This document shows, piece after piece, positions 4,942-47,500 of a stretch of 64,000 bases of DNA. The stretch spans positions 5,642,001-5,706,000 of the forward strand of contig CM102289.1 of NCBI GenBank assembly GCA_046563655.1. The letters run 5' to 3'. A model generated the notes under the pieces. That model was not told where the DNA came from. It saw only the letters and a list, made by a program, of their open reading frames with translations, and did not search any database. The first letter of the stretch is position 1. Every line of letters starts with the position of its first letter. The DNA comes from Yuukianura sp. NJ FZ-2021 (Eukaryota). The position numbers and the translations under genes were made by a program.

Positions 4942-5414
4942 GGCAAATATAAAGTTGTGCAATGCAAGAAAGCAATACAGCAGCAAAAATTATTATTCTT
5001 CATACTAAAAGAAAAACTGTAGTATCTTTGAATATTCTGAATCTAGCGTGAACTCGAAAGATCTTCGTTTTGCTTTGAGTTGCTGCGTGTGATTCAAGGT
5101 CAACTACAATCCTGTACTTTGTGACCTTGGAGCTCTCCAGATTCTGGAGCTGAACTCACATATTTTTCTTTGTTGCTCCATTCACTAAAGCGTCTGAAAA
5201 AAAAAACTTTTTTTGTGACTAGTCTTACCATTTTTATCAACTTTATCAAACAAGATTTACTCTGCTTTTTATTTAATTTTAATTCACACACCAACCTGTC
5301 GAGTTGAACGCAAGGTTTGCTGAAAGGTTTGATTTTGAAAACCTTTGTGTTTAAGTATAAGTAATACTTAAAATTTTTGTGGCAATTGATTCTATACGTT
5401 CGTCACAGGTTAAG

Positions 5415-8148: not shown

Positions 8149-8176
8149 CCGACCCTTTATTTTGTTATAGACTAAC

Positions 8177-8989
8177 ATGGAATTTTGGAATCAGCGTACG
8201 TTTTGCTTGATTACTGGAGCGTCCAGGGGAATTGGAAAATGCATGGCGGTGGAATTTGGGAAGAAAGTTGGATCTGGATCCGTATTGGTTCTAGTTGCTC
8301 GATCTGCTCAAGGATTGCAAGAAACCAAGTCAGAACTGGACAATGCTGGAATCGCTGACATTAAAATTGTGACAGCTACGCTGGATTTAGAAAAATCCGA
8401 GACATCCGACTACCTCAATCTCATCAACACTGCGCTGATTACTACTGGAACCTCCGCCGGTGACTTTGAACATTCACTTCTGGTTCACAATGCGGGATCC
8501 ACCGGAGACGTTACACTTCGAGCTATTCAACACGACAATTCAGACATTCTTCGCGGCTACTTCGATTTAAACCTAAACTCGATGATTCTTCTAACATCCC
8601 AATTTTTTAAGATCTTCAATGATGCTGAAAAACAACGAAGCATGATTAACATCACGTCACTCGCTGGGGTGCAACCATTTAAAACATTCAGTTTGTACTG
8701 CATCGGCAAAGCCGCTCGAGAAACATTCATGAAAAATGTGGCAGCTGAAGATCCATCAATTTCGTGCATTAACTACGCTCCGGGACCAGTCGATACAGAG
8801 ATGTACTCCTATGTGTCGCAAAACACCTCGGATGAGGAAGTTCGACAGCAATTCGCTGAAACGACTTCGTCTGGAAGTGTATTAACTCCAATTCAAACCG
8901 TTTCTAAACTGATTCGAATTCTGGAATCTAAGAAATTTACAAAGGCGGAGCATGTGGACTACTACGACGATGAGCCTGCACGAAAATAA
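8177..8989 (+). CDS. SPR: Sepiapterin reductase, canonical copy (270 aa)
   Basis: TGASRGIG, HNAGSTGD, catalytic S-Y-K in INITSLAGVQPFKTFSLYCIGKAAR, YAPGPVDTEM and C-terminal HVDYYD all match the SPR family pattern. Confidence 0.93.
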   Translation: MEFWNQRTFCLITGASRGIGKCMAVEFGKKVGSGSVLVLVARSAQGLQETKSELDNAGIADIKIVTATLDLEKSETSDYLNLINTALITTGTSAGDFEHSLLVHNAGSTGDVTLRAIQHDNSDILRGYFDLNLNSMILLTSQFFKIFNDAEKQRSMINITSLAGVQPFKTFSLYCIGKAARETFMKNVAAEDPSISCINYAPGPVDTEMYSYVSQNTSDEEVRQQFAETTSSGSVLTPIQTVSKLIRILESKKFTKAEHVDYYDDEPARK

Positions 8990-9216: not shown

Positions 9217-12200
9217 TTACGATTTCAGCTTCTTCAAATCATTCAAAACCTGTTAAAAAGAATAAAGTTTTGCAAGTTTTAAGGAATTTAGGAATTGTCG
9301 TTTAAGATTTTTATGAAATCCAACCTCCAAAATTGTTCCACAACTCCACGCTTGAGCTGGACAACTTGCTTCACACGTTTTCCCGCCGCTATTTGTCAGT
9401 TCCGGCAAACTTTTCCAACTGCTAGCTTTGATGTGTTCGTAGTGACGACTCAAAATTTGACGAATCTCAGGTATGGCACATTTACCGACAAAAGTCAGAC
9501 GAGCTCGTAGGTAAAACCCCATGGGCCACAACCACTCCTATGACAATAAACGTTGTTTTTAGTTGATACAGCTTAAATTAACCCACCTTTAGTAGTTGAA
9601 TATAAATTTACCGGTCCTTGATGGTAGTTAAATCCTCCAGCGACTTTGTAGTTTGATGAATCAGTGTTATAGTAGTCTCCATCGTAATTCCAATCAGATT
9701 CATCCAACGTTTTGAGCCCAAGTTTGGAAACCAATTTTGCCTTCACAGTTTCCAGTGCTGAAACTGCATTCCCTTGATCAAAAAGTTCTGGAGCAACTGT
9801 CATTGCAACGAGGAAGTTTGGACGGAGTTGGAAATCTCCGAATCCGTTGGAAGCACCTACAGTGTCCTTGTAAATATTCCGGACGTTTACAAGTCTCTCG
9901 GTTGCTGAAGCAGATACGAAAAACTGTGATTCAAAATTCAGTTTGATTTTGGTATACCATTCACCATAGGACATGCGCACTGCAAACAAAGACATTGTCA
10001 TTAAAGTGACATTATTTGAATAAGGATTTTTTTTCCAATTGACAACTATCGAGCACAAGTAAAAAAAAACTTACAATTATCTTTTTGAACAAATCTATTC
10101 CTAAACTCTTCTGTTGTGCTCAACTTGTTCAGAACAGCGGCACATAGTCCAACGATTTCCACTGCAGCACCATCACGTGGAGTAGCTGGAATTCCTGTAA
10201 TAAAATACTTCGAAATTGAGCTTTCTGTTCACAAGGTTAAACTGTTGAAGTTTTGTTTCCTCAGGATACCTCGATTTCCTCCTGTTTCACTGCTTCCCAT
10301 TTTGTCCATCCAAGTTCCGCAGTTGAAAGCATTTCCACCATGAACGAAACCTAAATTAAAGGTCCCAATTAACATTCCTTCAATTGACAAACTTTAGCGA
10401 CCGAAAGTTACCAGTGTTCTGGTCCACATGGATATCGATGTTGAAGCCTTCGTTTTTCATATGAGCGTCGATCTGTGGTCCAGCATTTTCCTCGCGAAAT
10501 TGAATTCCTTTGAAATGCAAGTCAATTGCGAGGTGCATTACGTCTTGAAGTGGCTTTATTTCTCCATTGAGCATCTTAACTTCATTGCTCAGAATCTGGA
10601 TTCCATTTCCAACCGTATCTATGTATCTCACGATGGCATACAGCCACCACCAAGTTGCGTCACGGCAATTGTAGCGACAATTCCCTTGGTTCATCAAGTT
10701 GGGAATCAGTCCGTTTCGTAAAACGGCAGCAAAAGACAGGATGTGTTGCCTGTATTAACAAAGAAAGACAAAAGATACTTATATTACTATTATTATATTA
10801 TATTATTATATTATATTATATTATTATATGTGATTATACCTAAAACTATTTCAAATTTTCCATACCTTGCTTCTTCATGCCTTCCTGTAAGCAAAAGGAC
10901 TCCAGGTAGCGCTATGAATGTATCTCGACCCCAGCTTCGCATGTACCCAGTAGAGAAATGTGGAAGACCTAGACAGAATTATACCAGCAACAAAATGGTT
11001 CAACATTTAAAACAGTTGTGTTTTTGCATCTTTTTTAAATAAATTAAATAATTTGAGAAAAAAAATTGGACGCTACCAGCCGAAAGCGAGTAAGGGATGA
11101 ACTGCTTGTGATCTTGGGCATCTCCACATGGCAGAGCTCCTCCTTCTACTACTCCCACAAATTGCAGCGACGAGAGAGCCAGTAACCTCCATAATTCCGT
11201 TTCAGTCCGAGAATTGGTAATATCGAGGGCCGACTCTATGCAAAGATCGTAAATACGCCTGAAACACTGCTCGAAATATGTTGGGACCAAATAGTTCGGG
11301 AGGTCAGCAACTGCTCCACAAAGTTTCCCAACGTACGTTCCTAGCTTGTTGGTTTCTTCTCTCTTGAGTAGCCGATTGACAATATAATCTATTGAAAAAC
11401 GAAACATAATTTGAATACTTTGAGATTTCAAAATTTTAAACCGTAAGGGTTTACCAAGTAGCCATTTGCCCTCTCTCAAATTACAACACAGTGGATGTCC
11501 AAGGTCATTATTGAGAGAAACAGAATCTAAAATGGAAGCAATTCCTTGAAGTCCTGCATACGTCAGTTCTCCAGTATTCGGAATGGCATAAACACCTCCT
11601 TCCTCTTCTTTGCAACGATACAAAACGTAATTCAAAGACACAAAATCCAAGTCTCGAATGATCAATCCCAGATAAGGTGATGCCAAATAATTAGCCAAAT
11701 TATGAAGTGCCAAGGCTGCAGAAGGAAATGGCTGAGCTCTTAAACCCACACCAAACGTTACTCAAATGAATTTCCTTTTCAATCCAAGAAGTTCAGAACT
11801 CACTTGAAAGCTACAACGTCACCGGGTTGAAAATTCAGAAATTCCACTCGACTCAAGCGATTGCTCTTAAGGACGTCAATGAACTTGGACTCTTCAATGG
11901 CAATATCTTCTCTCCATTCTTGTTCACATTGAATTCCAGTCAAGAACGTCTCATCTTCTGCATAAGTGGCTGACCCTTGTACAAGTCTTCCTTCAAAAAC
12001 TATTCGTGTCACATGACCTTGAACTTCAATGCCTCTGATAGAGTGTGGTGGTCGCTTGAAATCCTGAGGCGGAGCATGGAAGGCTGTGTAGGCCACCAGT
12101 ATTAAAGATTCTCTGGTCTTTGGATTTCCTCTTGTGACTGATACTACATCCGCGTCCAGTTGATCAACAAATGTCTATTACAAAAAATGATTATTGTAAT

Positions 12201-13515
12201 AAAGCACTTTTCAAAAAAAAAGTTTTGAAAAGTTCGATGGTAAAGTTACCTCAGAAAATCCGTCTTGGCCAAGCAGATGATGGATCTTATTGAGTGTCTT
12301 TCGAGCACGAAGCATCCCGGAATCTAAATTCACTTCTCCAGGACCTTTAGGGGTTTTATCAAAACTTGTGTACAGTCGTGATTCGATCACAACATGAATC
12401 TGTACACAAATTCCAAATTACACAGTTTTGTAAACTTATACCCCATAAAACTAAAGTAAACAGTACAAAGGGTAATTTAATTATTGTTACTTACCTGATA
12501 CGGAACAATGTCGTCGTATCCCCGGTTGCTTCCTATGGCAAAAGCACCAAATGATACCAACGCTGCTGTTGGCAGAATGTCCTTGATGCATCTCTTTTCA
12601 ATTGGACACGGATTGTCATGTGTTTGATCAAAAAATAACGCGTCAGCCACAGCCGGCGGAACAGTATTTTCAAAAGCACCAACTGGTTTCCCACCTAATT
12701 TCAACGAACTTATGTAAAAATGTGCTTCTGTAAAACTAGCAATGACGTTTTTTTAAATAAACCGGTTGTAAACCGCGCATAAGAAATAGCTCAAGCGATA
12801 AGGCGGTATTTGTTGAAGGTAACTAAACTTCTACTCTCCCAAGGGCGAGTGGGGTGGGTTCCCCCACCTTTCCGCCCAGCTCGGGGGAGTGGGTGTGGGT
12901 TCCCCACACTTTTTCGTTCCGCACCCCAGGATGCGTGGGGTGGGTTCCCCCACTTTTTCGCTCCGCACCCCAGGAGGCGTTCCCCTGCTTGGTGGGTTCC
13001 CCGGGGGGAGAGTGGGTGGGTTCCCTGGACAAGAGAGGGTGGGTTGCCCGGAACAGAGGGGGTGTGTTCCCCGGGAGGGGGAGTTGGTTCCCCGGGGGAA
13101 GGGCGTGGGGAAGGTTTCCCCGGGGGTGTGTGTGGGTCACCCGTGGGTGTGAGGGTGGGTCACCCGGGAGTGTGACTGTGGGTCACCCGGCGCTGTGGGG
13201 TGGGGTCCTCCCCGCTTCCCAGCTAGGAGGAAGTTAATTTGAAAAAAAGTTGACCTTTGACCCGGAAGTAGGTCACTTGGGGTCATTTGATATAAACAAA
13301 AGTTGTTAGTCTCGACGAGATGAACAACTTTTGTAGAGGTCGTTTTCCGGGTTACCGGGGATGGAACCGGTTGACCTTGACCTTGCACCCGGAAGGAGTT
13401 CACCTACCGGGATAATATTCAATAGTGACCAGGTTGGGGTCATGAGGTGTTGATAGGAGAAAACCGGAATCAAATCCGTCCAGTAGTTTCTGAGATAATT
13501 GAGCTGGACAGACGG

Positions 13516-13549
<34 letters not shown>

Positions 13550-15868
13550 ATGAATCAGATTATTAATAGCTTTCGCTATTAATAAATATTTCAGATTTAA
13601 CTAAAAAATCATAAAGTATTGCACCGTATCGGAAGAGGAGACGTCCTTGCTCATGACTATTCCATGCTTGTTGGGCTTCTACACAGAAACAGATGATTCA
13701 ATTCGCTAAGCATATAAAAATTGCTAACTTTAACGGCTAATGTTCACCTTACCGCGAATGAGAACATTAATTCCCAGATGATTCACAAAAACATTGTCCT
13801 TGGCGTCGGAATTTGTAAAAAGTTCAGCTACGACTAGTAGTTCTGGACGCACGCCTCTTGCTGCGTCAATCAAGAATTCCGCTACATGTAATGGTGTAGA
13901 ATGGCAGTTGTCCAGACGCACACCGTCGAAAACGGTCGCAACGAGTTCCACGTATTGCCGCATATAGGACCATAGAAAGGGAGAATCTTCTGGTGAATGT
14001 CCATATCTGACCGAAGCGAAAGGCGAAATTAATATTAGAAATTTTGAAAAATTCAGATCGTATAAATCACCTTAGTTTTACGCTGTCGCTCCACGCAATT
14101 AGCTCTCTTCGTAGATAGACATTAGAATCCGCATCAGCAAAGTTCCTGAGTGGATCATCATTCATTACCCATCCGTTGTGAGCCATTATAAAAGGACGTT
14201 TCTCAGAGGCCACGTCGAGCATTGTTTCTGCCTGTTCATCTCCGAGGTCATGAATTTCAGTGAAATACCTTAGATCCAAAAATTCACGAGTTTTTTAAAT
14301 AGCTAAATACTTGTGAGTTTAATTGATTCATCGAGTACCTGTGTGTGAGAGGTCGGTCTTTTGTAACTTTTTGATATCTCGGGCCATTGGATTGGATTCG
14401 TTCATAGCGAATTCCAGCAATAACATTTTCGACGGCAGCATCTAAATGACTTTTTATTACGCTTTTCGTTTCTTCATTCAATTTTTCCACTTTCCATCGT
14501 GGCGTATCACTGAAACAAATAACAGTTGATTCGAAATGCTAGTGTCATATTGCGTAACACATGTTTGTGTTTCTTGTTCGGTTCGACTCACCCTCCAACC
14601 TTTGACCCATATCTGTGATAAGTGTGAATGACACTCAGTTTTTTGTCGTTCAAGCTTGAATCAAGTCGGCAGTCTACGATACTTATTAAGTAAAACTCTT
14701 CTAGGCGTAGGACTTGTATCTGTTCGTGTAAAAGACTTCGAAGATTGTTTAGATGATCTTCGGAGTTGAGAGTTGAAGGAACTCCGCGATGTTTCCATTG
14801 ATCATTGGACACCTCATTGCTCAATTTTAGAAGCAAACGATCCAGAAGATAGGCTGGAAGTAGATGTGGTGAGTTGTGTAAATTGTACGCAGCATCGGGA
14901 TGATCTCTGAGCCAAGGACTTTCATTGGCAGTATGATTCAGTACGATGTCACACAAGGACAAGATCTATCTTTCAAAGCCAAATAAGGAAAAAACTTAGT
15001 TTAGAAGAATCCGAATCACATCGGCAACCCACTTACGTTCCACTCAGTACGCATTTTCGCTATGAAGGATTTCATAGATTCCCAGCTAACGTCTCCAAAA
15101 TTTTTGTTCAGTTCGAGCTGATTCAAAATGCTGTATCCGCTTGCACTAGGTCCCAAAGCCTGTTAAAAATAATGCTTATTCATATTTCAAAATACTTCGA
15201 GAAATAAATAGGAATAACTGTAACCTGAACAGGCGTGAAATGGATGAAGTTGAATCCAGTCTCTTTCGCTACCCCAAGTCTTCCTTCCCATTCATCAAAG
15301 GGGCCCAGACACTTGGGCATATAAGTAATCATGCTGATTGCATCTAGACGTAGACTTCCGTTAGAGAGCTCCAAGTCTGGATCAACCACGATCCAGCCCC
15401 CACCAATTCGGTCACTGTTTAAAGAATATTTCAGTTTTTCTACTACGTAACTCTAACTCCCAGATTATCATAGTACTCGTGTAACTTACTCGTTCTGGTA
15501 CTTGGTAAAATAGTAACTGAACGATCCAGGACGTTCTATGCTCAGCGTGGCTGACGTATCCTCGTTATAATCTTGGTCACTGAACTGAACGGGATAGAAC
15601 GCCGTCCGTTCGAAAGCGGTTCCATGGTAGTTCGTGAACAGTTTTATTGTAATCCCGTGAAGTGCAGCATCCAATTTAAAAATTACGTTGGTGCCTACAA
15701 TAAATAAAAGCAAACAAAATAATGGACAAAAGGAAAGGACAATTAACTTTTCGTTTTAAAAATGGCTTCCTCAATGTTCAAATTACCTCGTTGAATTTTT
15801 ACAAGAAGGTCTTCACCAAACACGCCATCTTTCAAATACAATACCCTTGGCTGATGTTGCATTACCAT
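9217..15868 (-). CDS. AGL: Glycogen debranching enzyme (4-alpha-glucanotransferase / amylo-1,6-glucosidase), about 21 exons
   Basis: Start [12 protein letters not shown] at 15868; the last exon 9249-9217 encodes [10 protein letters not shown]. Motifs include [84 protein letters not shown] and QAWS. Introns are mostly short GT-AG. Confidence 0.96.
10783..10828. repeat. (ATTAT)n-type low-complexity microsatellite in an AGL intron
   Basis: Run of TATTATATTATATTAT... Confidence 0.7.
12755..13585 (+). mobile_element. Non-autonomous Helitron/Helentron-like (HINE/DINE-1-type) element with an internal G-rich repeat array, in AGL intron 12695-13625
   Basis: This intron is 931 bp, whereas most others in the gene are under ~120 bp. 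It has G-rich degenerate repeats (12845-13215), a hairpin AAAAGTTGTT..TCTCGACGAGA..AACAACTTTT, the block AAATCCGTCCAGTAGTTTCTGAGAT, a (GACA/GACG)n microsatellite (13507-13550) and a terminal hairpin TTATTAATAGC-TTTC-GCTATTAATAA (13560-13585). The 5' boundary is approximate. Confidence 0.72.
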
Positions 15869-19500: not shown

Positions 19501-21146
19501 ACTTTTATGGTCATCAACTGACTACTGGAATTTAAAGTTTCTACAACTCAAAAGTTAATGTAAAAAAGAAAGTTTGGAAACAAGTTTTAGGACATTCAAA
19601 GGCAAATTCGGTAAAATCGTGAACACTCTAAAAAATAGAATTAAGAACTTATGGAAATTGTGCTTTAGCTGTTTGAGTAAACGCGTGATAATACGGTAAT
19701 TTTGAGCGTAAACTGAAATCCCACGAAACTGGGACCCTAAACAAGCAATAGTTACCGTATTTCCAGGAATAATTCACCAGAAAATTTAAGTTATAATTTT
19801 TAAATTGGTTTTACCTGAACACGTGACTCGGTTAGTCCAATCCGCATTGCGATTTCCTCTCGCATGAAGATGTCAGGGTAATGTGTTTTTGAAAAACAGC
19901 GCTCGAGTTCGTTGAGTTGCACGGGGGTGAAGCGAGTGCGATGTCTTTTTTGTTTCACGGGTTTGTCGCTGTCTGATGACACGGGCGTCGAAGTGCCCGT
20001 CCCCAACCCTCCGCCGCCCCCCAACTGCGACAAGTAAATCCAAAAGCCCAAAGTCTAATTTATCACGATTAACACACTTATTGGAAACACAAAATCCTAT
20101 CTCATCTCCCTCCAAAATAAATCCAAATGAAATATCGACTTCAAAAGTTATTCTTACAGATTCAAAAAAAGAAAAAAAAATATATCACAAAAGTTAATAA
20201 TTTTGTTATCTTAGAAAACTAACCTGGAGAGATGTGACCCCTTGACCTTGTGAGGAGCCGAGGGAATGCGACGTGCGAGAGTCACTGAGGTTGCAAAGAC
20301 TAGAAGGTCCGTGATGCCCTAAATCACGGACAAATTTAAAAATTAAATTTCTTTAGAACATGTTACGCTACAGCTTTCATAGTTGAAATTTAAGTGAATT
20401 TCATTATCATTATTAATTTTTGAAGTTAGCGCAATTTTGGAGTTAATAAATTAAATTAGCAGAGATATAGTGAGTGTAAATCCAATTGATTAAAGTTCAT
20501 TAACGTTAATACGAAAGCTTTCTCCTTAACCTAACCTGATTAACAACGGAGCAAGATGTGCAAAAAAAATCTGCAAAAAAAAATCAGTAAATCTAAACCT
20601 AGCCAAAAATTTTCTCCTAAAGTAAATCATTTTCTAAACTCTAAGTTAAAATTGGGTTAGATAACATTAAATTAGATAACGTTAAATTTTTAAATTTGAA
20701 AATGTCAAACTGAAAAAGGGTGAAAATTTTGATTTGTTTTCTAAAGCGCTTTTAGCTTAGTCTCAGTTTTTGGTTAATTTGCTTAAAGTTAGGTTAATTC
20801 CTAAGTTGCTTAAACTTAAAGTTGACCAAGTTTGAGGTTTCGGGTAATTAAGAGTAGTAAATTAATTAAGGTGTGTTAACGTGGTCTTTCGTAGGAACGA
20901 CTATTTAGTAGGCACTTTCTCCTAATCTAGTTATGCCCTAATTAATTGAATTTGGTCCAATTTATGCCTTAGTGAATCTCATTATTCACAAAACCTAAAA
21001 CAAACCGCCATTTTCACTAGAACGCACCAAGATTTTTAACTCTCAAATTTAACGTTAACTTTCCCCACATTCAATTTCTTTTTTGGTTTAAAAATTTCAA
21101 AAATTTCAAAAATCCGTGTGTTACCTCCCGAGATGTTGTTCAACAT
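16555..21146 (-). CDS. otp: Homeobox protein orthopedia
   Basis: Exons 21146-21125 (MLNNISG), 20318-20224, 20024-19815 ([47 protein letters not shown]), 17199-17007 ([36 protein letters not shown]) and 16933-16769 (..[11 protein letters not shown]), all phase-compatible. The 3' end is uncertain: either read-through to TAG at 16757-16755 or a terminal exon 16619-16555. Confidence 0.93.
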
Positions 21147-29364: not shown

Positions 29365-32051
29365 ATGGAGTCACTTATTCCAACGGTCAACAAAATCCAT
29401 GATATTGCTATTGCAGCCAAGACGCCAGTGGGTGCCTTGCCGCAAATTGTTATACAAGGAGACCAGGTAGCGAAAGATGCAAGTTTTAGTTTCAATGTAT
29501 CTCACATGTGAATTCTCACAACGTTTTTATTTCATTTTGAACAGAGCTCGGGCAAGAGTTCTGCAATAGAAAATATTGTTGGACGATCGTTTCTACCGCG
29601 TGGAAAAGGAATTGTTACGCGATGCCCAATAATTATTCAGATGATTCCAACGACAGGCATTCACGCCTACCAGAACGGAGATGTTGAGGGGCACTCTGGG
29701 CAACAAAATGGTATCACTGGTAAGAATATCCAATTTAACTTTTTGATATTTTTTCGGGTTCCTTATGTCGAGTATTGTTTTTGAATATTTTTAACTTCAA
29801 TTTTTTGTAGTATCGGATGAGTGGGTTGAATTTCTTCATACGAACAAACGTTTTACGGATTTTAATGCTGTCAAAGACGAAATTCAAGCTGAAACTGATC
29901 GCCAATGCGGCAGAAACAAGGGAATTTCCAACACGCCGATTACTGTCAAGATTTATTCTCCAAAAGTCGTGCAACTCACCTTGGTTGACCTTCCGGGATA
30001 CACTCGGGTCAGTCAGAAATTCTCTTGTTTAATGTTTTTAGCTTTTCAAAAAAAAATTTTTTTTCTTAACTGATTAGGTTCCAGTTGGTGACCAGCCGGA
30101 AGACATTGAGAAGCAAATTCGAGAGTTGGTTCTGGAATACATTAGACAACCAAATACGATCATTCTTGCTGTGTCTCCGGCAATTGTTGATGTCCAGACG
30201 AGTGAAAGCATCAAATTGGCTCAAGAAGTTGACCCCACTGGATCACGGACTCTCTTGGTCATTACCAAGCTGGATTTGCTTTCTGAAGGGGAAACTTACA
30301 TTGAGACGTTGAGCGGTAAGGTTCTGGATGTCAAACTCGGAATTATTGGGCTCGTCAACCGATCAACTGTCGACGTTAGAACTGAGAAGACAATCGAAGC
30401 TGCGATTCGGGACGAAAAACGCTTTTTCGCTGGGCGTTACCCCAGAATTGCACATTTGCATGGAACGGAACGACTGCGCATGCGCCTTCACGAGTTGCTT
30501 GTTCAACACATCAAGTATTGCTTGGATGACATCGAGGTAGAATCAAAAATTCACATTGCATCTATAAAAATGTGCCAATCCATTAAACTTTCTTCTATAA
30601 AAATATAAATTATATATAATATATATTAGATAATATTACATAATTCTACATAATATTATAATAATGCATAATATTAACCATATTATAAAATATTATTTTG
30701 CCTTTGTAGTTGGCCATTAGTGGTATGATTGCTGAAGCTGAAATGGAACTTCGGAAACTTGGAACCGCTGGAGAGGAAATCAAGGACAAGCGTCGTGTTG
30801 TTGGGGAAGTAATTTCCCGCTACTGTGAAGATGTCAAATCGGAAATATTCGGAAGTGCTCGGAACCCACGAACGGACCGAGTTGCTGGGAAAGAACAACT
30901 TCTGCTGCTTTTCTCTGAAACTTTTCGTGAGGTTTTGGATGACATTGACCCGGTCATTTCAGCGACAGACAATGACATTGCAACTGCAATCAGTTTTTCG
31001 GGTCCAATTGAAGCAATTTTCTTCGTTCCAGATGTAAGAATCTTCAGAATTTTAAAAACTCAAAAAAATGTAACTTTTGAATTTTGTGTTAATATTTTTA
31101 ATTGCCTATTTTCTTATTAATTAAATAGGGAGCTTTTCGAACCTTGGTTAGACGCCCAATCGAAGACTTAATGGAGCCATCTCAACTCTGTGCTGCTCTT
31201 GCGCATCGTGAAATGAAGCAAATCCTCTACACATGCGCCGATGACTTGAAAAAGACTCGCTACTACTTTCCACGACTCAATGAAGCTTTGACCAACGGTG
31301 CATCGAAATTGCTCAATGAACGATTTAAAATGGCCAAGGAGATCATCGAGACTTACGTCAACATTCATGCTGACTCTGCCTTTACGACGGATCCAACCTT
31401 TTTGAAAAAAGCGCAGGAACTGAAGGCCAAGATGGACGTGTCTCCACCGCTTTTGTCCGAATGTCACGTGAGTGTTGCTGCTGCAAATGAGTCTGTCAAC
31501 AACAGTCCATTTCGAAAAGCAAAAGCTGCGAAAGGTCAAAGTTCTCAGCAGCAGGGTACGACTGACGTGGTTGAGCCTAGTAATTTGACCAATGGAAACG
31601 CTAACATCGTTGCAAAGTTGCCTTCCACGATGGCTGCACCCGCCCAATCGACTTCTACAAACGGCTCAGCAGTAGCTGAACCATTGACTATTCAGCAGCG
31701 GAAGTGTGAGATTGTGCGGGAACTGATGCGACTCTACTTCAACATTGTACGCAAATGCCACCAGGATTATGTGCCTAAAGCACTTCTTCACACTGTCATC
31801 TACTACGTTGTTGAAAATCTCAACACTGAATTGGTAAGTTCATCAATTAAAAACTCACAATTTTCTGTAAAGTCTAAAGTATTTTTTTGTGTCAAAATTT
31901 TAACTAGTCCGCTCTACATGCAAATCAAGAAGAATTGGAAAGACTGGTGGAGCCACCAGCAGACGTCCTGGAGAAACGACGCAACACTCTGCAGAATTTG
32001 GCGTCATTGAAGGAAACGGCTGAAGCTATTCCAAAGCTCCGCCTCCTCTAA
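29365..32051 (+). CDS. Divergent Drp1/DNM1L-derived dynamin-family GTPase, paralog 1 (7 exons, ~701 aa)
   Basis: Exons 29365-29466, 29545-29719, 29811-30007, 30078-30536, 30710-31033, 31129-31833 and 31908-32051 splice into one open frame. G1 GDQSSGKSS, G2 VTRCP, G3 DLPG, G4 TKLD; Drp1-type [18 protein letters not shown] and [11 protein letters not shown]; low-complexity insert [20 protein letters not shown]. No PH or PRD domain. Confidence 0.92.
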
Positions 32052-32831
32052 AGTGCCAATTTAGCACTCGGTTTTATTTGAGCAATTATATTTTAAAAAT
32101 GTATAACTTTTCATGCTCAATTTTCAATTATGCTTTTGAAAAAATGTCATGCATTTTCCTACTAAAACTTATCAAATATTTGCTGAAACTTTCTCGGAAA
32201 AGTTTCCTCTATGCTTGCTTCTTCTTGAGTTTGTATTAAATAAAACATTACATGGACGTTTTAATATGTCAATTGTATTTTATTTTCTAAAATCGGAAAA
32301 CGCGTGGCTAAAAAACTATTTTTATTTTGTGTAATGCGTTCACTTTTGCCTCTGATTTGATATACTAAAAACAGTATCTCATGTAAACATTTCGTTTGTG
32401 TTTTTTTCAAAACTTGAAACAACGTAATAGTAACTAGAATTACGTGATGTGTGTGACTCGTTTCCGACAAATATTATCCCATTAATTGAAAGTACGCAAT
32501 TAAGCGAGAGCTTGACTTGTTGACTTTGAGATTATAATTTCTGGAAATCCGTACAATACTAACTGTGACGCTGAGTATTGTTTTAGTATCGACTATAAAA
32601 ATATTTATCTTAAAAATCCCAGTTGATAAATTTCTACAAACAATGTGCGAAAGCGTCAGAAAAAAACAAAACAAAAATTGACGCAGTTTCGACAAACTGG
32701 ATAATGTCATTTAAACTGAATCTTGTAACTATAAATCCAGTTACAAGATCAATTGGTCAAATCAGTTCCAACCTTGACTTAAATTTCAAATCATCCAAAT
32801 ATTTCCGGTTGCAAAACTTAGCCGTACCAAA

Positions 32832-33229
32832 ATGGCGTTACTCAAATTCCTTGTTTTCCTCTGCATCGTCGCCGTGACTATGAGCACCCCTTTGTCCAAG
32901 TCCAGAAAGTAAGTACTTCCGAACGACTTTTTTCTTAGTTTCAGATAAGTTAAGTTAATTGTATTTAATTTTTGAAATTATTGTTCAGAAACTCGCTACT
33001 GACGGATGGCTGTGCAGGAATCGACTGTCCCGGAGGTGAAGTTGATGGTTACTTTGCACATCCAGAGAGTTGCACCCTGTACTGCCACTGCTCCAATGGT
33101 GTCCCCATTGAACGACCCTGTGGACCTAAGCAGGAGTTTGACCCTGACCTGAACGTCTGTGTCCACGAGGGAGACTACGACTGCCCATACAGTGAGGAGT
33201 CGTCAGAAGAAGATTTGAAAATTCGTTAA
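32832..33229 (+). CDS. Small secreted chitin-binding protein with a single CBM14/peritrophin-A domain
   Basis: Exon 32832-32908 encodes a signal peptide (MALLKFLVFLCIVAVTMS). Exon 32989-33229 encodes CPGGEVDGYFAHPESCTLYCHCSNGVPIERPCGPKQEFDPDLNVCVHEGDYDC with ChtBD2 cysteine spacing and an acidic tail. Confidence 0.88.
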
Positions 33230-34234
33230 AATATTATGCAGTCTAATATCTGCAATTTATCTTTCACTTTTTAACTAAAATACTTATTTTCCACTATTTG
33301 TCGTAAATGTTTATTACGTATTTTCAAGAAAATATTACAGAAAACACTTACCCAAGTCTTTGCCAAAAGTTTATCTCTAAAAGTTTTCGCTTGCTTCTCC
33401 TTCACTTTCTTTTTCAAAAAAAAATTGCACGAGATAGCTTAATCGTTTTAATGATTACTATTTTGGACAACATGAATAGCCTTGAGAGTATCTTTGTTTA
33501 TTTTGCGGCATAACATGTACTTTGAATTTGATTTGACTAACATCAAACGTTACTCTGTTCAAATTCATCAAAAAGGAGCTACACTGCGTTATAGAATATT
33601 TTGTGTAAATTGAACGATGGAACGCAATTGGGACACCTAACAGCTAAATCATGTTTTCTAATGCGCTAATTCTAAAATGAAGAAATAATTTTTCGGTAAT
33701 ATCCATTTTTAATCGGTTTTTAGAAATTAAAAACTGTTTCAAACTGCCGAGATTCTTACGGCTAATATTCCAAAAAAAAAACGTTTCATTTGCAGTGGTC
33801 AAAATCGGATGTTTAGCTAAAACTAATTTTTAAATTACAATGTTAAACCGGATATTTTTGGCGTGCGTTGAAATGATATTGTCCTGGGTCGTCAAATTCA
33901 TTCTGCTTGCTCGTAGTTGTTCTTTCATTGCTTGTGTAAATTTGATAAATTTTGTCTTATCTTCAAAGCAAATTTATTTTGCAAATTTCTTCTGAAATTG
34001 TGGGATTTACTTTATGAATAGCCGCCGCCGACTTTCTTTTGTTTGCCAATTCAAAAGCAAATAGTTCGGATCCTTGAGTTTACACTTTTGAACATTCTTT
34101 CCAGTTTCTGGCTTGCCCTAAATTAGACGTCCATGTCCGAGAAGGAATAATTTCAAAAACTTACTGCAATTTCCTGTTGTTAGAAAGTTAGCATATTGTC
34201 ATTTTCCTACTTGCAATACCTTTAGAGAACCAAT

Positions 34235-37200
34235 ATGGACTCACTAATTTCCATTGTCAACAAAATTCACGATGTCGCTACTATGGCCAAGATGCCATTA
34301 AGCGACTTGCCGCAAATTGTAGTACAAGGTGACCAGGTAAGAAGAACTTTGGCATTAAATCGAATTCAATTTACAGTCACCGCGCATGCGTTAACTGTAT
34401 TTATTATCGCAGAGTTCTGGCAAGAGTTCGGTCATGGAAAGTTTAGTTGGACGCTCATTTTTGCCCCGTGGAAAAGGAATGGTCACTCGAAGTCCAACAA
34501 CTGTTCAAATGATTCCCACCAAAAGCGGAAGCGCCAATCACGTCGGAGACGATGGCAAGCAAAATGGTTATGTTTGTAAATATTAAAATATTTTTGATTT
34601 GAATCTTTTTAATAAAAAAAATAAAATCATAAAAACAAATTTCAAATTTAGCACCGGCAGATGAATGGGTAGAGTTTCTTCATACGGAGAAACGCTTTAC
34701 TGATTTCAATGCCGTTAAAGACGAAATTCAAGCTGAAACGGATCGGCGAGCTGAAACAAACAAGGGAATTTGTAAAACTCCAATCACCGTCAAAATTTAT
34801 TCTCCAAAGGTCGTACAACTTACATTGATTGACCTTCCAGGCTACACTCGGGTAAATAAAAGATTTTTTCTAAAAAAATTCTTTTCAAAAAATGGAATTT
34901 TTACACCTAGGTTCCAGTAGGAGACCAACCTGAGGACCTTGAAAAGCAAATTCGAGAGTTGGTTCTTGAATACATTACACAACCAAATTCAATTATTCTC
35001 GCCGTGTCGCAAGCAACTGTAGATGTCACGACGAGTGAAAGCATAAAATTGGCTCAACAAGTTGACCCGACGGGGGCAAGGACTCTTGTGGTCATAACCA
35101 AGTTGGATTTGCTTCCCCCCGGGGAAAATTTTACGGAGACCTTGAACGGAAAAGTTTTGAATGTTAAGCTTGGAATTATTGGAGTCATCAATCGGTCAAA
35201 CGCGGACGTGAAGAAAGAAAAGACAATCGAACAGGCAACTCGCGATGAGAAAAGTTTCTTACTTTCGCGCTATCCAAGTATTGCCCATTTGCATGGTACA
35301 GAGCGCCTGCGCTCACGGCTTCAAGAACTTCTTGCTCATCACATCAAATTCTGTTTAGATGATATCGAGGTTACACTTTACATATTTATATCGTACTTAT
35401 GGATAACTATTGAATAATTATGTTATCGAGCTATTATTGAATAACTAAATTGAATTCTTGCTCTTTAGATTTGTGATTTCGTTTTGTTTTTTAGGTAGAA
35501 ATCAGTGGGATGATTGCTGAACGTGAAATGGAACTAAGAAAAATTGGGAATGCTGGCGAAGAAATTAAAGACAAGCGGCGAGTCGTTGGTGAAGTAATTT
35601 CTCGATATTGTGACAATGTCAAATCGGAAATACTCGGAAGTGCTCGGAATGTTCGAACTGACCGAATTGCGGGAAAAGAACAACTTCACGTGCTCTTTTC
35701 TGAAACGTTTCGTTTGGTTTTGGATGAAATTGATCCCGTAGAGAACACAACTGATAATGACATTGTAACTGCAATTAGTCGTTCAGGACCAATCGAAGCA
35801 ATTTTTTATGTTCCAGACGTAAAACAAAATATTTCCAATTCTATAATAACAATAACGTTGGTCTTTCCTTTTTTTTTAAGTTTTAAGGAGAGACAGGAGG
35901 TCAATAAAAATAACGCCAAAGAGTGTTTAGTAGACATGGCAACGACTGAGAATTGAGAATTTACAACTACGTGATCATGAAAAACCCCAACGGGTGGATT
36001 CTTTACGATTGAAATTTTGCACAACTCACGCTAACTCGCGAATCACTGCGTTAAATTTCAAATTTGAGAAACGTTTGCGTTTTTTCTAAAACTGCCAGAC
36101 GAAGTGGATGAGCCATTTCTTTTTCTCAACTCTCATGTTACCCCAACTCTTGGTGACGTAATACAAAATTGTAAATTGTAAACAAGAAATTCGTGAACTC
36201 TGACCCAATCTTCTGGTGCATTTCCTGTATGATTGGTTAGGCGCTCAAAAAACTACGACCACACTTTTCGCATTAGCACACGCTGATCAGCAAAACATCG
36301 GACAACTAGGTGACGAAAAGAGTACCCTTCGCCCAGAAAACCTAGTTTTTCTGGATTTTCCCGAGGATTTCAGAAACATTTTCCGGAAAACTTAAGTTTT
36401 CTGGACGAAGGGCACTGTTTTCGTCACCTAGTTGTCCGATGTTTTGATCATCATCGTGTGCTAATGCGAAAAGTGTGGTCGTAGTTTTTTGAGCGCCTAA
36501 CCAATCTTACAGGAGATGCACCAGAAGTCTTATGGGAAATTGCGTTGAAGCGAATCTGTCCATCCTAATCTTAAGTACAAAATTTATGTTGTTTAAAAAC
36601 TCTAGGGTGCATTTCGTACTCTGATTCGACGCCCAATTGAAAACTTAATGGAGCCTTCTCAGCTGTGTGCTACTCTTGCGCATCGTGAAATGAAACAAAT
36701 TCTTTACACATGCGCCGACGATTTGAAAGAAACGCAATACTATTTTCCAAAACTTAACGAAGCTGTGACCAAACTTGCTACCAAATTGCTCGATGAGCGA
36801 TTTGACAAAGCCAAAGACATCATCGAAACTTATGTTAACATTCATGCTGACTCTGCTTTTACAACGGATCTAATTTTCTTCAAAAAAGGGCAGGAGTTGA
36901 AGGGAAAAATGGACGTAGCACCGCCAGTTTTGACAGAATGTCAGTCTGCTGGTTCAACAGAAACGGTAAACAGCAGCGCTTTTGTCAAAGCAAAGGCCAA
37001 AGGTCAAAACTTGGTGCAGCAAGTAACAGCTGACGTACCAGTAGCAGATACTTCTTTGCCAAATGGGAATGTCAGCACTACTACTACGACTGCGCAACTG
37101 AACGCTGACCAGTTGACTATTCAGCAGCGTAAGTGTGAGACTGTGCGTGAGTTGATGCGGCTCTACTTCAACATTGTGCGCAAGTGCCACCAGGATTATG

Positions 37201-37483
37201 TTCCGAAGGCATTGCTCCACACTGTCATCTACTACGTTGTTGAAAATCTGCACACTGAGTTGGTAAGTTTACAAATTCAAAAAATATTATTATTTTTAAA
37301 TCTGTGTAAAATATTTTTCGGTTTTAACATTTCGAATAGTCTGCTCTTCACGCAAATCAAGAAGATTTGGACAAATTGGTAGAGCCGCCTGCAGATGTTT
37401 TGGAAAAGCGGCAAAATACTTTGCAGAATTTGCAGTCCTTGAGGGAAGCGGCTGAAGCAATTCCGAAGCTCCGCCTACTTTAG
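34235..37483 (+). CDS. Divergent Drp1/DNM1L-derived dynamin-family GTPase, paralog 2 (7 exons, ~679 aa)
   Basis: Exons 34235-34336, 34413-34566, 34652-34851, 34911-35369, 35495-35818, 36606-37262 and 37340-37483, with the same intron positions as paralog 1. Motifs [22 protein letters not shown]; ends AIPKLRLL*. Confidence 0.92.
36210..36527. mobile_element. Foldback/MITE-like long inverted repeat in intron 5 of dynamin paralog 2
   Basis: CTTCTGGTGCATTTCCTGTATGATTGGTTAGGCGCTCAAAAAACTACGACCACACTTTTCGC... is matched by its reverse complement ending ...TACAGGAGATGCACCAGAAG, with arms of ~135 bp. The host intron is 787 bp against 95 bp in paralog 1. Confidence 0.8.
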
Positions 37484-38503: not shown

Positions 38504-41500
38504 TCATCTCCTTAGCCAGTGATGGTAGGTTTCAGACGACATGCTTGTAGTGATAAGTGAAAGGAAATGTAGGAGGAGCCAAAGGAGAAAGTAGTCCCAA
38601 GGACGCAGTGAAGAAGTGCTTGACGAACTTCGGTTGCCATGCTGCATCGCTGCTGGATGTTCTCCTGCAACAATTTATTTCAAATTTTAAACCTATCAAA
38701 TTCAAAATTTCAAATCTTGAAAGGGCAAGGCAAGGCACAAAAGGAACTCCGCTGGAACGTCACATAACTACGTGCAGACATAATTTATAGTGGGAGCAGA
38801 GTGTGCTGACAAGTTTCAAGGACGACGGTTTTCTTTTTAGAACAGCTTTGAATTTAAAAAATAGGTCCTACGTGTTTAAGAAAATGGACTCTGTTCGGAA
38901 TACGAATCTCAGTGTGGAAATTAAGGATGGGAAACCGATTATCTGTAAACGAGTAAACAGACGGAAGTCCAACTTCCAATTCCCTGGAGAAAGATTTTTG
39001 GGGGAAAGTTCAAATAAAAAAGTCTGGGAAAAGTTAAAAAGGAAATTAGAAAAGTAGAAAGAGATGTCTGGTCGGACTTGTTTGAACAAATGTCTGGGTT
39101 TAGATTTGTTTGAAAAAGAACGACTGAACAAATTGAAAAACAAAATGAGAAAAAGCGGGCTAATTCAATTGCAATAAACTTTTTCGAACGGACATAAAAA
39201 GATCGCCTATCGAATTCGGAGAATCGGATTTCTCTGTTGAAATATGTACGGGTTAAAAAAACGCCTAACGCTGGGAATTCGAATTGAAATAGGATAAATA
39301 CGAGGTTGGTCATTTTGAAATAAGTTTTAACAGTTGTTTTTTGAATAATTTAAACTATAATTTGGATATCAGGATTGTTTTTGAATTAATTATTAATCAA
39401 TTGTTGTTTTCAAATTTATGTGAAACTTTTGTTAAAACTGAAATGCAGATCAAAAGTCAGTGGCGCCAATGTTGCCGGTTTAAATTTTGACAAGTAAGGA
39501 TTTGGTTGACAAAAGATTTAATAGGCTACTATTGTTACCACACAGTGTAGCTGCTTGTGGCTACAAGAAATGGCTACACGTTGTGGCAACATTTGTAGCC
39601 ACTCAAATGTAAAACAGAACTTAACCTGCAGCGGCAACATACGTAGCCGCAGAGCATAGCTACAATTGTAGCTGCAAAGTGGCTACACCGTACGGTTACA
39701 ATGAGTTTTGCGCAACGTTACTCCAACCAGAAATTTTAAAATTTCAAAATTAAAAATCAAAAGTTTGAAAACTCCACTCTTCAATTTAATTTTTCAATTT
39801 AATTAGTTTTAATTAGTTTTCAGAATCACTCTATAAGAAACAAGTAACTTCAAATGCCAGGTAACTAGACATCGAAGTTGGAAATTAATTGCAATACCGG
39901 TAAGTTCTTTTGAAAAAACACATTTTCTTGTTGTAAGTTAAAATTTAATTAGGTCATTTAATTATACTTTCTACAAATTGAAAGTGACTACTATTTTAAA
40001 AAAAATATTGCTTTTTCTTAGAAAATGTTCCGAGGCCTAGACCCACCTATACAAGCGTTGCTGGCAACTTTATTCACATGGTTCCTGACAGCGCTAGGCG
40101 CCGCTGCCGTCTTTCTACTCCACAAGACAAAGTTCAAGGTACTACACGAGAATATCGATTGGTTCAGTTGAATGGATCGGAGTTAGGTACAATGCAATCA
40201 TCCAGATCCAATTCAATTTAAGTTCTGAAGCGAGGAATCAAAAAGCGCTGAAAAGCCGTGTAATATTAAAATTGCATACAACTTTAAGGGTATATCTTCT
40301 GCAAACTCGCGAAGGTTCTATGGGAGAGATAGGGAATTTCACTTTCTCTCAGAGTAACAGCTCTGGGCATCTCACTTCTCCCTATCTCATACATGGGGGC
40401 ACATTTTAGTTAAAGTTAGGTTAGGTTAAGTTAGGGTAATGAGCGGCCAAAACTAATTACAGATTCGTAATCAGCGTAAAAAACTGAGTTAATTGAGATT
40501 TTTATCTCAATTAAATGAGCTTCGCGAGTTTCCGAAAGGAGTTCCACTTTAAGATTTATTTTGTTATTTTAGAAAGAGCTTCTAGCAACATCACTTGGAT
40601 TCGCTGGTGGTGTTATGCTGTCGGCTTCTTACTTCTCTCTACTTGCACCGGCAGCTGAAATTAGTGGAATCGTTCCGATTTGCGGTGGGTTTTTACTGGG
40701 TGCTGGATTTGTGACCTTGGCGGATTGGATAATTGGGGATGTGGATAAACCGGAAATGTTCTACAGTACGTTGTTCAATCAATCACAGATTAATCAACTT
40801 TTGATTTTCACGTGGGTGACCTGTCTTTCTGTCTGTAGCGATGTCAAAACAAAACAAGAGAGAGTACAAACGGATGTTGCTGCTCATCGCTGCGATAACG
40901 GTGCATAATATTCCAGAAGGACTTGCCGTCGGTGTAGCTTTTAGTGGGAAACAGTTTGAATCTGCAAGGAACTTAGCCATTGCCATTGGATTACAGAACT
41001 TTCCAGAAGGTTTAGCCGTCAGTCTTCCACTAGTTGCCAGTGGCATGAGCAAATGGAAAGCCTTCTGGTGATTGTCAACTGAACTAACTTAATTACTTTC
41101 TCCTTAAAAACTTTCACAACAACTGTTTGGTTACTCCTAGGTATGGTCAACTGTCTGGCATGGTGGAACCATTTGCTGGAGTAATCGGTGCCCTAGCTAT
41201 TTCTCTCTTTGAGCCTATGTTACCATGGGCCCTTGCCTTTGCCGCTGGAGCCATGATCCATGTCGTTGTTCGAGAATTGGTTCCAGAAAATAGTTGGAGT
41301 CATATCGTCGGATTTACCATTATGATGGCCCTTGACCTTGGACTGGGATAACCCATTTCTGTGATACCACTCCAAGTCTCTCGCTTTGAGTTTTGATTTT
41401 TATGATTCCTGTCACAAATGATCAGTTTTAAACTTCCATTTTAACTTTGACTTAAGGATGTGATTTTATGATTTAAGCTTAATCGAATTGATTTTAACAC

Positions 41501-44500: not shown

Positions 44501-47500
44501 ACAAAAATCTGGAAGCAAAGGAGTACTGAAGGCTTTTTTTGTACTAGGAATGTCTGATGAAATTTCGTAGAGGAAGTTGTTTTTTAAATTTTAATATTTT
44601 GAACAAGAACTTTTCTGAAAAAAGTTACCTGAAATGACATGGACGACGACACTGGCGGGAGCAGACATGGTAGGGGAGCATGTGTAGTTGCCGGAGTGGT
44701 TCGCCCGGACTTTGGCAATGGTCAGAACTGAACGAAGGACTTCTCCACGCTGCGTCGTGACCTTTATGTCAGAAGACGCTGATGAAGGGTCACCGTAGTA
44801 CCCTTGAGGATCAACTATACTTGACCCTTGGTACCAAAAAACCTGCAAGTTTCATAAGCAAAAGTTCAAATTAACGCTGACCGTCGGTTGGTCTAACACT
44901 AAAAAGTGGTTAGACAGTGGGTGTTTAAATTTTTGAATTTTTGAAGTAGTCGTTAAATTGTTTTGACCTGAGCAATATCATGCGGTCCATGATCAACTTC
45001 GCAAGTCAGTCTGAGAGAACTCCCGCTTTTGACATGAACGTCGGGTCCACCGATGATTCTCGCTTTGGACTCTGCCAAAATGATTTCAAATTTTTTTTTA
45101 AATTGTTGCCTTGTGCGTAAGTAAGTGTGGCGCTGAAGTCAAAGAATTTGAGCGGAAACAACATTGACGCCGCCTTGAAATTTTTTCCACTTTCACTTTC
45201 CAATTTTCCTTTGAACATAGGAGCAGAAAACAGCCCGAAGGTTCTGTTTCGCAACTTTGTAAACACAGTTTTTTGTTTCTTTTTTGAATTCATTCAAAAT
45301 CTCTTCTAAAAAGTTGAAAACAAATTTGGGAGGATACGGCGATGTGTTTACCGTAAATGCTCTAATATAAGCGCGCCGCTTATAAGAATTTTCGACCTTT
45401 CGGACGCGCCTCTATTAGAACACTATTTATTACCGCAATAATTAATAAGTTTTAAGTGAGCCAAAATTCAATTAATAGTGATCCCATTCGTCGCTGGCGT
45501 CACTGTTGCTTTCTTCAAGGCTCCTCCAAATGTGCCCACTGTAGTAATACTTGGCATGTCAAAAAATATTCCAGTCATGGCAATAATATTTGTGTTGGAA
45601 ATTTTATTCGTAACAGCGAGGTTGGAAGTGTACATGACGAACTCGACAAGCTATTCAAATAACGAATTTGGATCTTTTTGAGCCAACGACGCTTTCTTTC
45701 TCAAACCGAGGTCATGGCGCTTCATAAATTTTTGTAGCCAACCACTGCTGGCCTGAAATTCGTTTGTTTGAAGCACTGCAGAATAGACTTCCCTAGCTTT
45801 CACACGAATAGATTTGAAGGAGACACTTTGCTGGTTGGTGCGCTGATTTAAAATCCAATCGTAAACCATTTTGTTTGCTTCTTTAGAAAGTTGTTTTCTC
45901 GAGTCGAAAGGTAAAATTACTAGTTAAATTTTTACCGATTTTATCTTTTGCTTCAGCCAACTGAAGACTTGTTTTCGGTGTATTCCGAAGTGAGCTGCGT
46001 TACCATCCGTGGTATTAGTAGAAGCGTACTGAACCACTTTTAACTTAAAACTGAGATCAAACGATCGTATTTTAGTTACACCATTTTTAAAACTTGTATT
46101 TAAGTGCTACATTTTGATTTGAGTCAAATTATCAACATAGAAGTTAAACAGATGATGTCACTTTGCTCTAGGCTCTGCTTTAAACTCAAGTTAGCTACCG
46201 CGCTTATATCACAATTTGCCCCCGCTGAAACCGCGCTTGCATTAGAGTATGCGCTTATATTAGAATACGCGCTTGCATTAGAGCATTTACGGTATGTCTA
46301 GGAAATCAAAATTTACAAAGGACTTAGGAAAAGTATTATCTAACATTTACTGCGCAAAGGAAAGATAAACTCATCAAAGCAGTTTTTTTCCGTGTTCAGC
46401 AACGAAAATTGTATTCAAAAACTTTTTTCTCTGTTGAACCCTATCAAAGGAAAGTAGACAGACTGGAACTGATGGGGAGAATAACATCTCTCCTATTTCA
46501 ATTTTTTACAAAACTATAAAAAAAAATCAAAAAAAAATTTTGATGTAAGGTAGAAATTTTTTTTTTTTTTTTTTTTCAAAAATTTTTAATTTTTATTTTA
46601 TAGGTAGAGATTATTTTTTTTTTATTATAAAAAACATCGTTTCGTAAACACAATGGAATAAAATCAAACAAAAATTTTGTCTAAAAGAACAAATACTTCA
46701 ATCTTCACGAAGACTTTTGAAATTCAAATCCTTTCTGAACTGTGAAAATATATATTTGCAATAATTTTGAACACAAAGGGAAAATTTATTCCCAATTTGA
46801 AAAACTTTTCTATTTTTTTTCTCTGTATTACAGTGGATTCTCTAAATAAGGGACAGGAGCTCCTCCTCTTTCTCACTTTCACTCGAAGTCGCGGTTTTAA
46901 TTTTGGAGGGAACGTTTCAGTTTATCGGCTTATTTTTTACGATTGTTTTTTTTTTTGGTTAATTTTTTTTTTGGTGCGAAACAAAAGTAATTAGATAATT
47001 AAATGGAATTAACTAATATTAATATATATATATTATATAGATATATCTGCGCAAAAACTGCGCAACAGCGCACAACCTGCGCAACAGCGCACAACCTGCG
47101 CAACAGCGCACAACCTGCGCAACAGCGCACAACCTGCGTAACAGCGCACAACCTGCGCAACAGCGCACAACCTGCGCGACAGCGCACAACTTGCGCAACC
47201 TCGCACAACCTGCGCAACAGCGCACAACCTGCGCGACAGCGCACAACTTGCGCAACCTCGCACAACCTGCACAACAGCGCACAACCTGCGCGACAGCGCA
47301 CAACTTGCGCAACCTCGCACAACCTGCACAACAGCGCACTGCATATAATATATTATATTATATAACCTGTTTAATAAGGGTGGCATTCACAACGTAATTT
47401 GCATGTAATATACCATATAATATTGATTAGTATATAGATATCACATATAATTAGCATTAATATATGAATATTATGTATATTAATATTAATTATATACTCT

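Follow-up and report, generated by a model that had tools for sequence, protein, structure and literature searches.

Drp1 is among the most conserved of animal proteins. In its canonical form (DNM1L; human structures 4BEJ, 5WP9 and 3W6N), a GTPase (G) domain with an A-insert is followed by a bundle signalling element (BSE), a stalk, a disordered insert B and a GTPase effector domain (GED), with no pleckstrin homology (PH) domain and no proline-rich domain (PRD). A recent survey of the dynamin superfamily (Langley et al. 2025, PMC11789081) found Drp1 single-copy in every animal sampled, yet a duplication is evident in the stretch of DNA analysed here, 64,000 nucleotides (nt) of the springtail Yuukianura sp. 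NJ FZ-2021 (assembly GCA_046563655.1, contig CM102289.1, positions 5,642,001–5,706,000; hereafter the window, in whose own numbering all coordinates below are given). The window encodes a tandem pair of very divergent dynamin genes, g1 and g2. Judged by sequence, both are Drp1-derived, and we lean, if only modestly, towards regarding them as extra paralogues beside an unseen canonical Drp1 rather than as the only Drp1s of this organism.

Gene models and family assignment of g1 and g2

The first-pass annotation of this DNA described two seven-exon genes with full G1–G4 motifs and the Drp1 architecture without PH domain or PRD, a description that agrees with the reading frames, the splice sites and the Pfam matches. 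The gene models are as follows.

29365–32051, plus strand: g1, Drp1-derived dynamin gene, 7 coding exons, 701 amino acids (aa), spliced model with open frame
29365–29466, plus strand: g1 exon 1, N-terminal BSE helix and start of G1 (..QGDQ)
29545–29719, plus strand: g1 exon 2, remainder of the P-loop (SSGKSS), switch I (GIVTRCP), variable A-insert
29811–30007, plus strand: g1 exon 3, from DEWVEFLH through G3 (DLPGYTR)
30078–30536, plus strand: g1 exon 4, G4 (TKLD), VNRS, end of the G domain, BSE, start of the middle domain; matches human Drp1 chains at 159–161 bits
30710–31033, plus strand: g1 exon 5, first half of the stalk with the assembly loop SGPIEA (TGPRPA in human Drp1); 33 bits to human Drp1
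31129–31833, plus strand: g1 exon 6, second half of the stalk, low-complexity insert B (~85 aa), start of the GED
31908–32051, plus strand: g1 exon 7, end of the GED and stop codon
34235–37483, plus strand: g2, paralogue of g1, 7 coding exons, 682 aa, 77% identity with g1
34235–34336, plus strand: g2 exon 1
34413–34575, plus strand: g2 exon 2, SSGKSS, GMVTRSP, A-insert
34652–34851, plus strand: g2 exon 3, from DEWVEFLH through DLPGYTR
34911–35369, plus strand: g2 exon 4, G4, BSE, start of the middle domain
35495–35818, plus strand: g2 exon 5, stalk
36606–37262, plus strand: g2 exon 6, stalk, insert B, start of the GED
37340–37483, plus strand: g2 exon 7, end of the GED and stop codon

Stop-to-stop frames and inspection of splice sites revealed no internal stops in either gene; all 12 introns have GT..AG borders, and exon phases are equal between the copies. 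Intron length is 59–173 nt, with the exception of intron 5 of g2 (787 nt). Both proteins begin and end where canonical Drp1 does, and poly(A) signals lie downstream of both stops, 184–188 nt past that of g1 and 133 nt past that of g2 (one signal). These are the only two dynamin copies in the window.

Two of the introns contain repeats. An AT-rich tandem repeat occupies 30623–30695 in intron 4 of g1 (10-nt unit ATATTACATA, ~7.6 copies). Much of the length of intron 5 in g2 is due to an inverted repeat (36210–36527) with 146-nt arms that are 92% complementary and a 26-nt spacer; it looks like a miniature inverted-repeat transposable element or a hairpin insertion.

Dynamin_N, Dynamin_M and GED are the sole Pfam matches in an exon-by-exon scan of g1 and g2. 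The GTPase motifs are complete in both: the P-loop (GDQSSGKS), the switch I threonine, DxxG (DLPG), TKLD and VNRS. With a large GTPase domain carrying G1–G4, a middle domain and a GED, the two proteins belong to the dynamin superfamily. They have the marks of its Drp1/Dnm1 clade as well: no PH domain, no proline-rich tail, an insert B between stalk and GED, and a place in trees apart from classical dynamin. The PH domain matched no exon of either gene in Pfam and both proteins stop right after the GED, hence have no PRD; classical dynamin identity was accordingly rejected. Insert B is rich in S, T, A and Q and is 41% identical between the copies.

External database searches were run with single exons, and the spliced proteins were used in local comparisons. 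Against sequences in the PDB, exon 4 matched human Drp1 at 159–161 bits, Vps1 at 134, dynamins at 120–127, plant DRP1A at 96, Mx1 at 67–69 and Mx2 at 59. The two preceding exons discriminate less among Drp1, Vps1 and dynamin: exon 2 scored 37–44 bits with Vps1, dynamin and Drp1 (Vps1 41–44, Drp1 37–39) and 27–28 with Mx, and exon 3 scored 69–72 bits with the same three families (Drp1 70, Vps1 and dynamin 70–72) and 24–28 with Mx; in both exons Vps1, dynamin and plant DRP1A equal or slightly exceed the Drp1 chains. The only PDB matches of the stalk exon were Drp1 chains, at 33 bits, and a single chain that bears the name 'Dynamin'.

In five of six trees, which use one classical dynamin as outgroup, the pair is nested within a starred clade that comprises the Drp1s of cnidarians and bilaterians. 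One smaller tree puts it inside a starred pancrustacean clade, and a careful tree search places it within a protostome group of unresolved order (support 90/98). Its stem is 3.4–8.4 substitutions per site long, as compared to median end branches of 0.31–0.38. Constraining the pair with hexapods was not rejected (p-AU, the p-value of the approximately unbiased test, 0.27). Neither was constraining it with P0020, P0022, P0035, P0041 and P0054, canonical Drp1s from environmental or assembled data that form a distinct, well-supported non-insect pancrustacean clade and might be springtail canonical Drp1s; here the log-likelihood rose by 3.8 (p-AU 0.79), a gain that is not significant.

Intron positions are consistent with this placement. 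Four of the six introns of g1 (Gryllus coordinates 34, 85, 152 and 305) match breaks between high-scoring segment pairs in canonical Drp1 genes on metagenome contigs, and for the other two the closest such breaks are 6–10 residues off. The shared positions indicate that g1 and g2 descend from an intron-bearing animal Drp1 and are not retrocopies. The gene models, PDB scores and trees thus uphold the initial description of the pair as intact, very divergent tandem duplicates of Drp1 origin.

Divergence, duplication and the resemblance to Mx

In full-length blastp comparisons, g1 and g2 are 38–40% identical to the canonical Drp1 of every phylum among the matches, whereas eight canonical Drp1s (tick, sea urchin, bee, shrimp, coelacanth, soft coral, tardigrade and bug) are 54–76% identical to one another; the initial remark that the pair lies far from the Drp1 consensus was correct. 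We defined near-invariant columns as those at least 95% conserved across an alignment with 101 full-length canonical Drp1 matches, which yielded 239 columns. Canonical sequences keep a median of 238 of them, g1 keeps 158 (66%) and g2 155 (65%), and the single classical dynamin in the set keeps 152. The 81 columns changed in g1 therefore compare with 87 that separate Drp1 from classical dynamin, and of these 87 Drp1-specific columns g1 retains 42 and g2 41. Retention in g1 is uneven, with 110 of 134 columns kept in the G domain, 34 of 76 in the stalk and 14 of 29 in the GED.

The GPRP stalk loop of Drp1 is required for higher-order assembly. It reads TGPRPA in 5WP9, which is wild-type human Drp1, and TAAAAA in 4BEJ; g1 has SGPIEA. 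Neither across the near-invariant columns nor at this loop do g1 and g2 fully retain the residues typical of animal Drp1. Altogether 78 near-invariant columns are altered in both copies and 60 of them have acquired the same new residue, which implies that most of the divergence is older than the duplication that produced g1 and g2.

That duplication is itself old. By the Nei-Gojobori method, synonymous divergence (dS) between the copies is 1.05 and nonsynonymous divergence (dN) 0.139, so dN/dS is 0.13 and both copies have been under purifying selection since they arose. By region, the ratio is 0.06 in the GED, 0.09 in exon 3, 0.23 in exons 1–2 and 0.24 in insert B, and insert B also holds the maximum among 100-codon windows (0.24). 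The estimate comes from two sequences with dS near saturation, and site-wise positive selection is compatible with such a low ratio. Similarity between the copies at the DNA level is restricted to coding exons, and the comparison of substitutions between g1 and g2 gave no sign of recent gene conversion. The label 'fast-evolving' attached to the pair at first therefore fits the long stem that precedes the duplication, during which those 60 of 78 shared changes would have accumulated, and does not fit the period since, with no 100-codon window above 0.24.

The first-pass annotation also saw Mx-like residues in the G domain. The motifs it quoted are present: GDQSSGKSS and DLPGYTRV in both genes, and GIVTRCP and PAIVDV in g1 (GMVTRSP and QATVDV in g2). 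The D in G1, TRCP, TRV and VD agree with what we take to be Mx motifs. The G domain as a whole is not Mx-like, however, as its three exons score 27, 24–28 and 59–69 bits with Mx as opposed to 37–39, 70 and 159–161 bits with Drp1. Moreover, TRCP is found in 8 of the 107 canonical Drp1 matches that show the switch I motif, and DLPGITRV in 2 of 118 canonical-type matches, so TRV occurs in at least 2 of these. DLPGMTKV, given initially as the Drp1 form of G3, is just as rare (2 of 118), the common forms being DLPGITKV (68) and DLPGLTKV (34). GDQ was seen in none of the 101 canonical matches that show the G1 motif, at a position already variable among them (T, S, A, N or V). In the ANTDM stretch, V precedes D in 1 of 101 canonical matches, and g1 lacks the N as well. 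Of the residues shared with Mx, just this V and the D of GDQ are rare in canonical Drp1. P0181, a divergent representative, carries both GDQSSGKS and GIVTRCP. Given the PDB scores and the presence of TRCP and TRV in ordinary Drp1s, the resemblance to Mx, as far as sequence tells, is confined to a handful of scattered residues, and some are ordinary Drp1 variants.

Relatives, host lineage and standing of the pair

Among named proteins of other springtails, the searches yielded a single relative. Among the longer proteins of a 5.8-billion-protein set, exon 4 had no match above 58% identity, and its top match was from Orchesella cincta. This 'Dynamin-1-like protein' (P0001, 1337 aa) is a fused prediction of two head-to-tail divergent Drp1-like units, which are 77% identical to each other, the same value as g1 and g2. 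The units are 30–33% identical to g1 and g2 (31–33% to g1), which is below the identity of g1 and g2 to canonical Drp1. Two trees unite P0001 with g1, g2 and P0181, with support of 92 in a 53-row tree and of 99 in a smaller one (stem 1.43); long-branch attraction is a possible cause of both groupings. The first Orchesella unit and g1 jointly depart from canonical Drp1 at 54 near-invariant columns, as compared to 35 expected under independence, and at 15 of them their new residues are identical; in controls, pairs with dynamin and Orchesella versus P0181 share 3–8 such residues, and g1 versus P0181 shares 10. The shared derived residues are suggestive of kinship between g1 and the Orchesella units, not decisive.

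Relatives of the pair were scarce in the other collections. Exon 6 gave no match with an E-value below 1e-30 among 1.84 billion representative proteins, the best being 37–38% identical over long stretches. All 62 metagenome loci, retrieved with scan patterns that are near-universal dynamin motifs and hence unspecific, score higher with canonical insect Drp1 than with g1. Of the canonical Drp1s at soil metatranscriptome loci, L001, L004 and L005 fall among the chelicerates, and L002 is placed with the insects. No relative of g1 or g2 is encoded on the viral contigs of IMG/VR, and the ESM Atlas returned generic GED and Dynamin_M clusters only. In the literature, phrase searches for Drp1 paralogs or duplication found no report of Drp1 duplicates in animals among the papers listed, and searches pairing Collembola with dynamin found irrelevant papers only.

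The following features surround the pair.

3–767 (cut by the window start), 2675–3604, 5361–6290 and 8171–8986, plus strand: four tandem intronless genes for a short-chain dehydrogenase/reductase (SDR), sepiapterin-reductase-like
9256–15755, minus strand: glycogen debranching enzyme gene, at least 12 coding pieces
19803–20054, minus strand: homeodomain exon (Pfam E-value 2e-15)
32832–33229, plus strand: small two-exon gene between g1 and g2, for a probably secreted protein whose N-terminus resembles a signal peptide and which has a single CBM14 (peritrophin-A) chitin-binding domain
40573–41348, plus strand: exons of a ZIP zinc transporter gene
45654–45923, minus strand: fragment of a Tc5/pogo-type transposase DNA-binding domain

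The CBM14 gene is single-copy in the window and stands outside the duplicated unit. With this single copy, and with no similarity between g1 and g2 beyond their coding exons, a segmental duplication that included the CBM14 gene is ruled out. The first two SDR genes have identical translations over their shared part. Between coding pieces of the debranching enzyme gene, a G+C-rich segment (12783–13237) is free of stops in several frames, and repetitive DNA at about 47000–47400 has several frames open on both strands, with repeated peptide units. Rfam had no match anywhere in the window.

Two of these neighbours bear on the identity and the rate of the host lineage. The best matches of the SDR genes are some 21 unnamed environmental or assembled proteins at 48–62% identity; the sole named one among them is the sepiapterin reductase of Orchesella cincta (52%), and the next named protein follows at 36%. 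Together with the top match of exon 4, likewise from Orchesella, this SDR match would by itself mark the host as a probable springtail. The debranching enzyme is 37–42% identical to references over all tblastn pieces, whereas most other animal phyla are 44–54% alike and a nematode reaches 38–44%; one poorly conserved exon of it reaches 32–38% identity, as compared to 42–62% among named animal references. These values suggest that the lineage is moderately fast, roughly like a nematode. Estimated from identities, the branch of the Drp1-like genes would be ~4 times the usual length and that of the debranching enzyme ~1.5 times.

Our modest preference for extra paralogues arises because the acceleration of g1 and g2 lies far above that of the neighbouring debranching enzyme gene, and because the window and Orchesella forms differ more from each other than does a fast-evolving enzyme; the poly(A) signals after both stops were also counted in its favour. 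Several points weigh against it. The canonical Drp1 that it calls for is placed elsewhere in the genome from relative rates, within an analysis confined to the window, and the lineage rate was gauged by one comparator gene. The finding of one Drp1 copy in every animal surveyed lowers the prior for additional copies (PMC11789081). In the 53-row tree, which includes 22 unnamed long-branch representatives, the pair joins a cluster of long branches next to the clade of canonical animal Drp1s, though a starred clade (98) that leaves out classical dynamin still takes it in, and the long stem leaves its exact position within the protostomes unresolved. It is possible, though in our judgement distinctly less probable, that g1 and g2 are the only Drp1s of the organism, long-branch co-orthologues that serve ordinary mitochondrial and peroxisomal fission in a fast lineage. 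The single-copy rule just cited would favour this, as would the somewhat raised divergence of the debranching enzyme gene compared with most phyla, the dN/dS of 0.13 and intact GTPase, which suit an essential gene, and the great divergence of the only named springtail relative, that of Orchesella. It would, however, require a roughly 4-fold acceleration where the debranching enzyme, by the same estimate, shows 1.5-fold, the alteration of 81 of 239 positions near-invariant in 101 canonical Drp1s, about the gap between Drp1 and classical dynamin (87), and an essential fission GTPase that is 31–33% identical between springtails whose SDR is 52% identical.

Two other explanations carry little weight. 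The loss of many otherwise invariant Drp1 positions would suit functionless duplicates in decay, but seven-exon frames open in both genes with canonical splice sites, intact GTPase motifs throughout, and, at a dS near 1, a dN/dS of 0.13 gene-wide and of 0.06 for the GED speak so strongly against decay of one or both copies that we give it hardly any credence. The first-pass annotation had also raised an Mx-analogous role as an effector against viruses or endosymbionts; on this reading, the pair would have been recruited from Drp1 in a lineage devoid of Mx. Tandem duplication, strong divergence and variable loops do recall the turnover of immune genes, GDQSSGKS is absent from the 101 canonical matches with the motif and yet accompanies GIVTRCP in P0181, and Mx is reported to be missing in Drosophila melanogaster and C. 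elegans (PMC11789081). Nevertheless, the G-domain exons score far higher with Drp1, Vps1 and dynamin than with Mx, TRCP and TRV belong to the range of ordinary Drp1s too, dN/dS between the copies is nowhere near 1 even at its maximum in insert B, and IMG/VR yielded no viral relatives, so we regard such a role as speculation and very improbable.

If g1 and g2 are indeed extra paralogues, they would be two functional, independently transcribed dynamin-superfamily GTPases that arose from an animal Drp1 gene, probably a pancrustacean or hexapod one, through duplication at the DNA level within the host lineage. By analogy with Drp1, both are predicted to bind and hydrolyse GTP, to dimerise via their G domains and to polymerise via their stalks into assemblies that constrict membranes. 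The rebuilt surfaces of stalk and GED, including the change from GPRP to GPIE, suggest that they would neither co-assemble with Drp1 nor use adaptors in the canonical manner. Housekeeping fission would then most likely be carried by a canonical Drp1 elsewhere in the genome, and the pair may be a specialised offshoot that works on the membranes of organelles under limited circumstances, for example in a single tissue, in the germline or under stress, its two copies presumably subfunctionalised through their divergent A-insert and insert B.

A broader conjecture, which we consider unlikely but worth stating, is that the window pair, the Orchesella pair and P0181 together represent an unrecognised, fast and repeatedly tandem-duplicated Drp1 offshoot of springtails, perhaps of other soil arthropods as well, which coexists with canonical Drp1 and has kept the GTPase engine while its stalk and GED were rebuilt for a new target, for example in defence or in germline-specific remodelling of organelles. 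It would be the first reported exception to the rule of one Drp1 per animal. With the GTPase kept and a third of the invariant positions replaced, the pair would amount to a natural experiment that may tell surfaces dispensable for the motor from those tied to mitochondrial fission. Should a canonical copy coexist, the pair would make a new animal dynamin subfamily with a function still to be found; should there be none, the fission machinery of one hexapod lineage would tolerate far more change than has been thought.

Comparison with described dynamin-family GTPases

Among described systems, canonical Drp1 is the nearest in design: g1 and g2 have its domain order from G domain to GED and likewise lack PH domain and PRD. 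They depart from it in the G1 motif (GDQ instead of GTQ or GSQ), in the stalk loop (GPIE instead of GPRP), in their tandem arrangement and in an identity of 38–40%. Fungal Vps1 and classical dynamin have G domains highly similar to those of the pair, whereas exon 4 and the stalk of g1 and g2 are closer to Drp1. Mx proteins (MxA/Mx1 and MxB/Mx2) are dynamin-superfamily GTPases too, and they likewise have a middle domain and a GED and lack the PH domain, but the stalk exon of the pair matches no Mx chain in the PDB. Furthermore, g1 and g2 fall inside the Drp1 clade, while the Mx clade, in the survey, stands outside Dyn plus Drp (PMC11789081). The Orchesella protein P0001 offers the closest parallel in arrangement, being a springtail head-to-tail pair of very divergent Drp1-like units; it differs in that it is annotated as a single fused protein and that its units show no one-to-one orthology with the two copies in the window.

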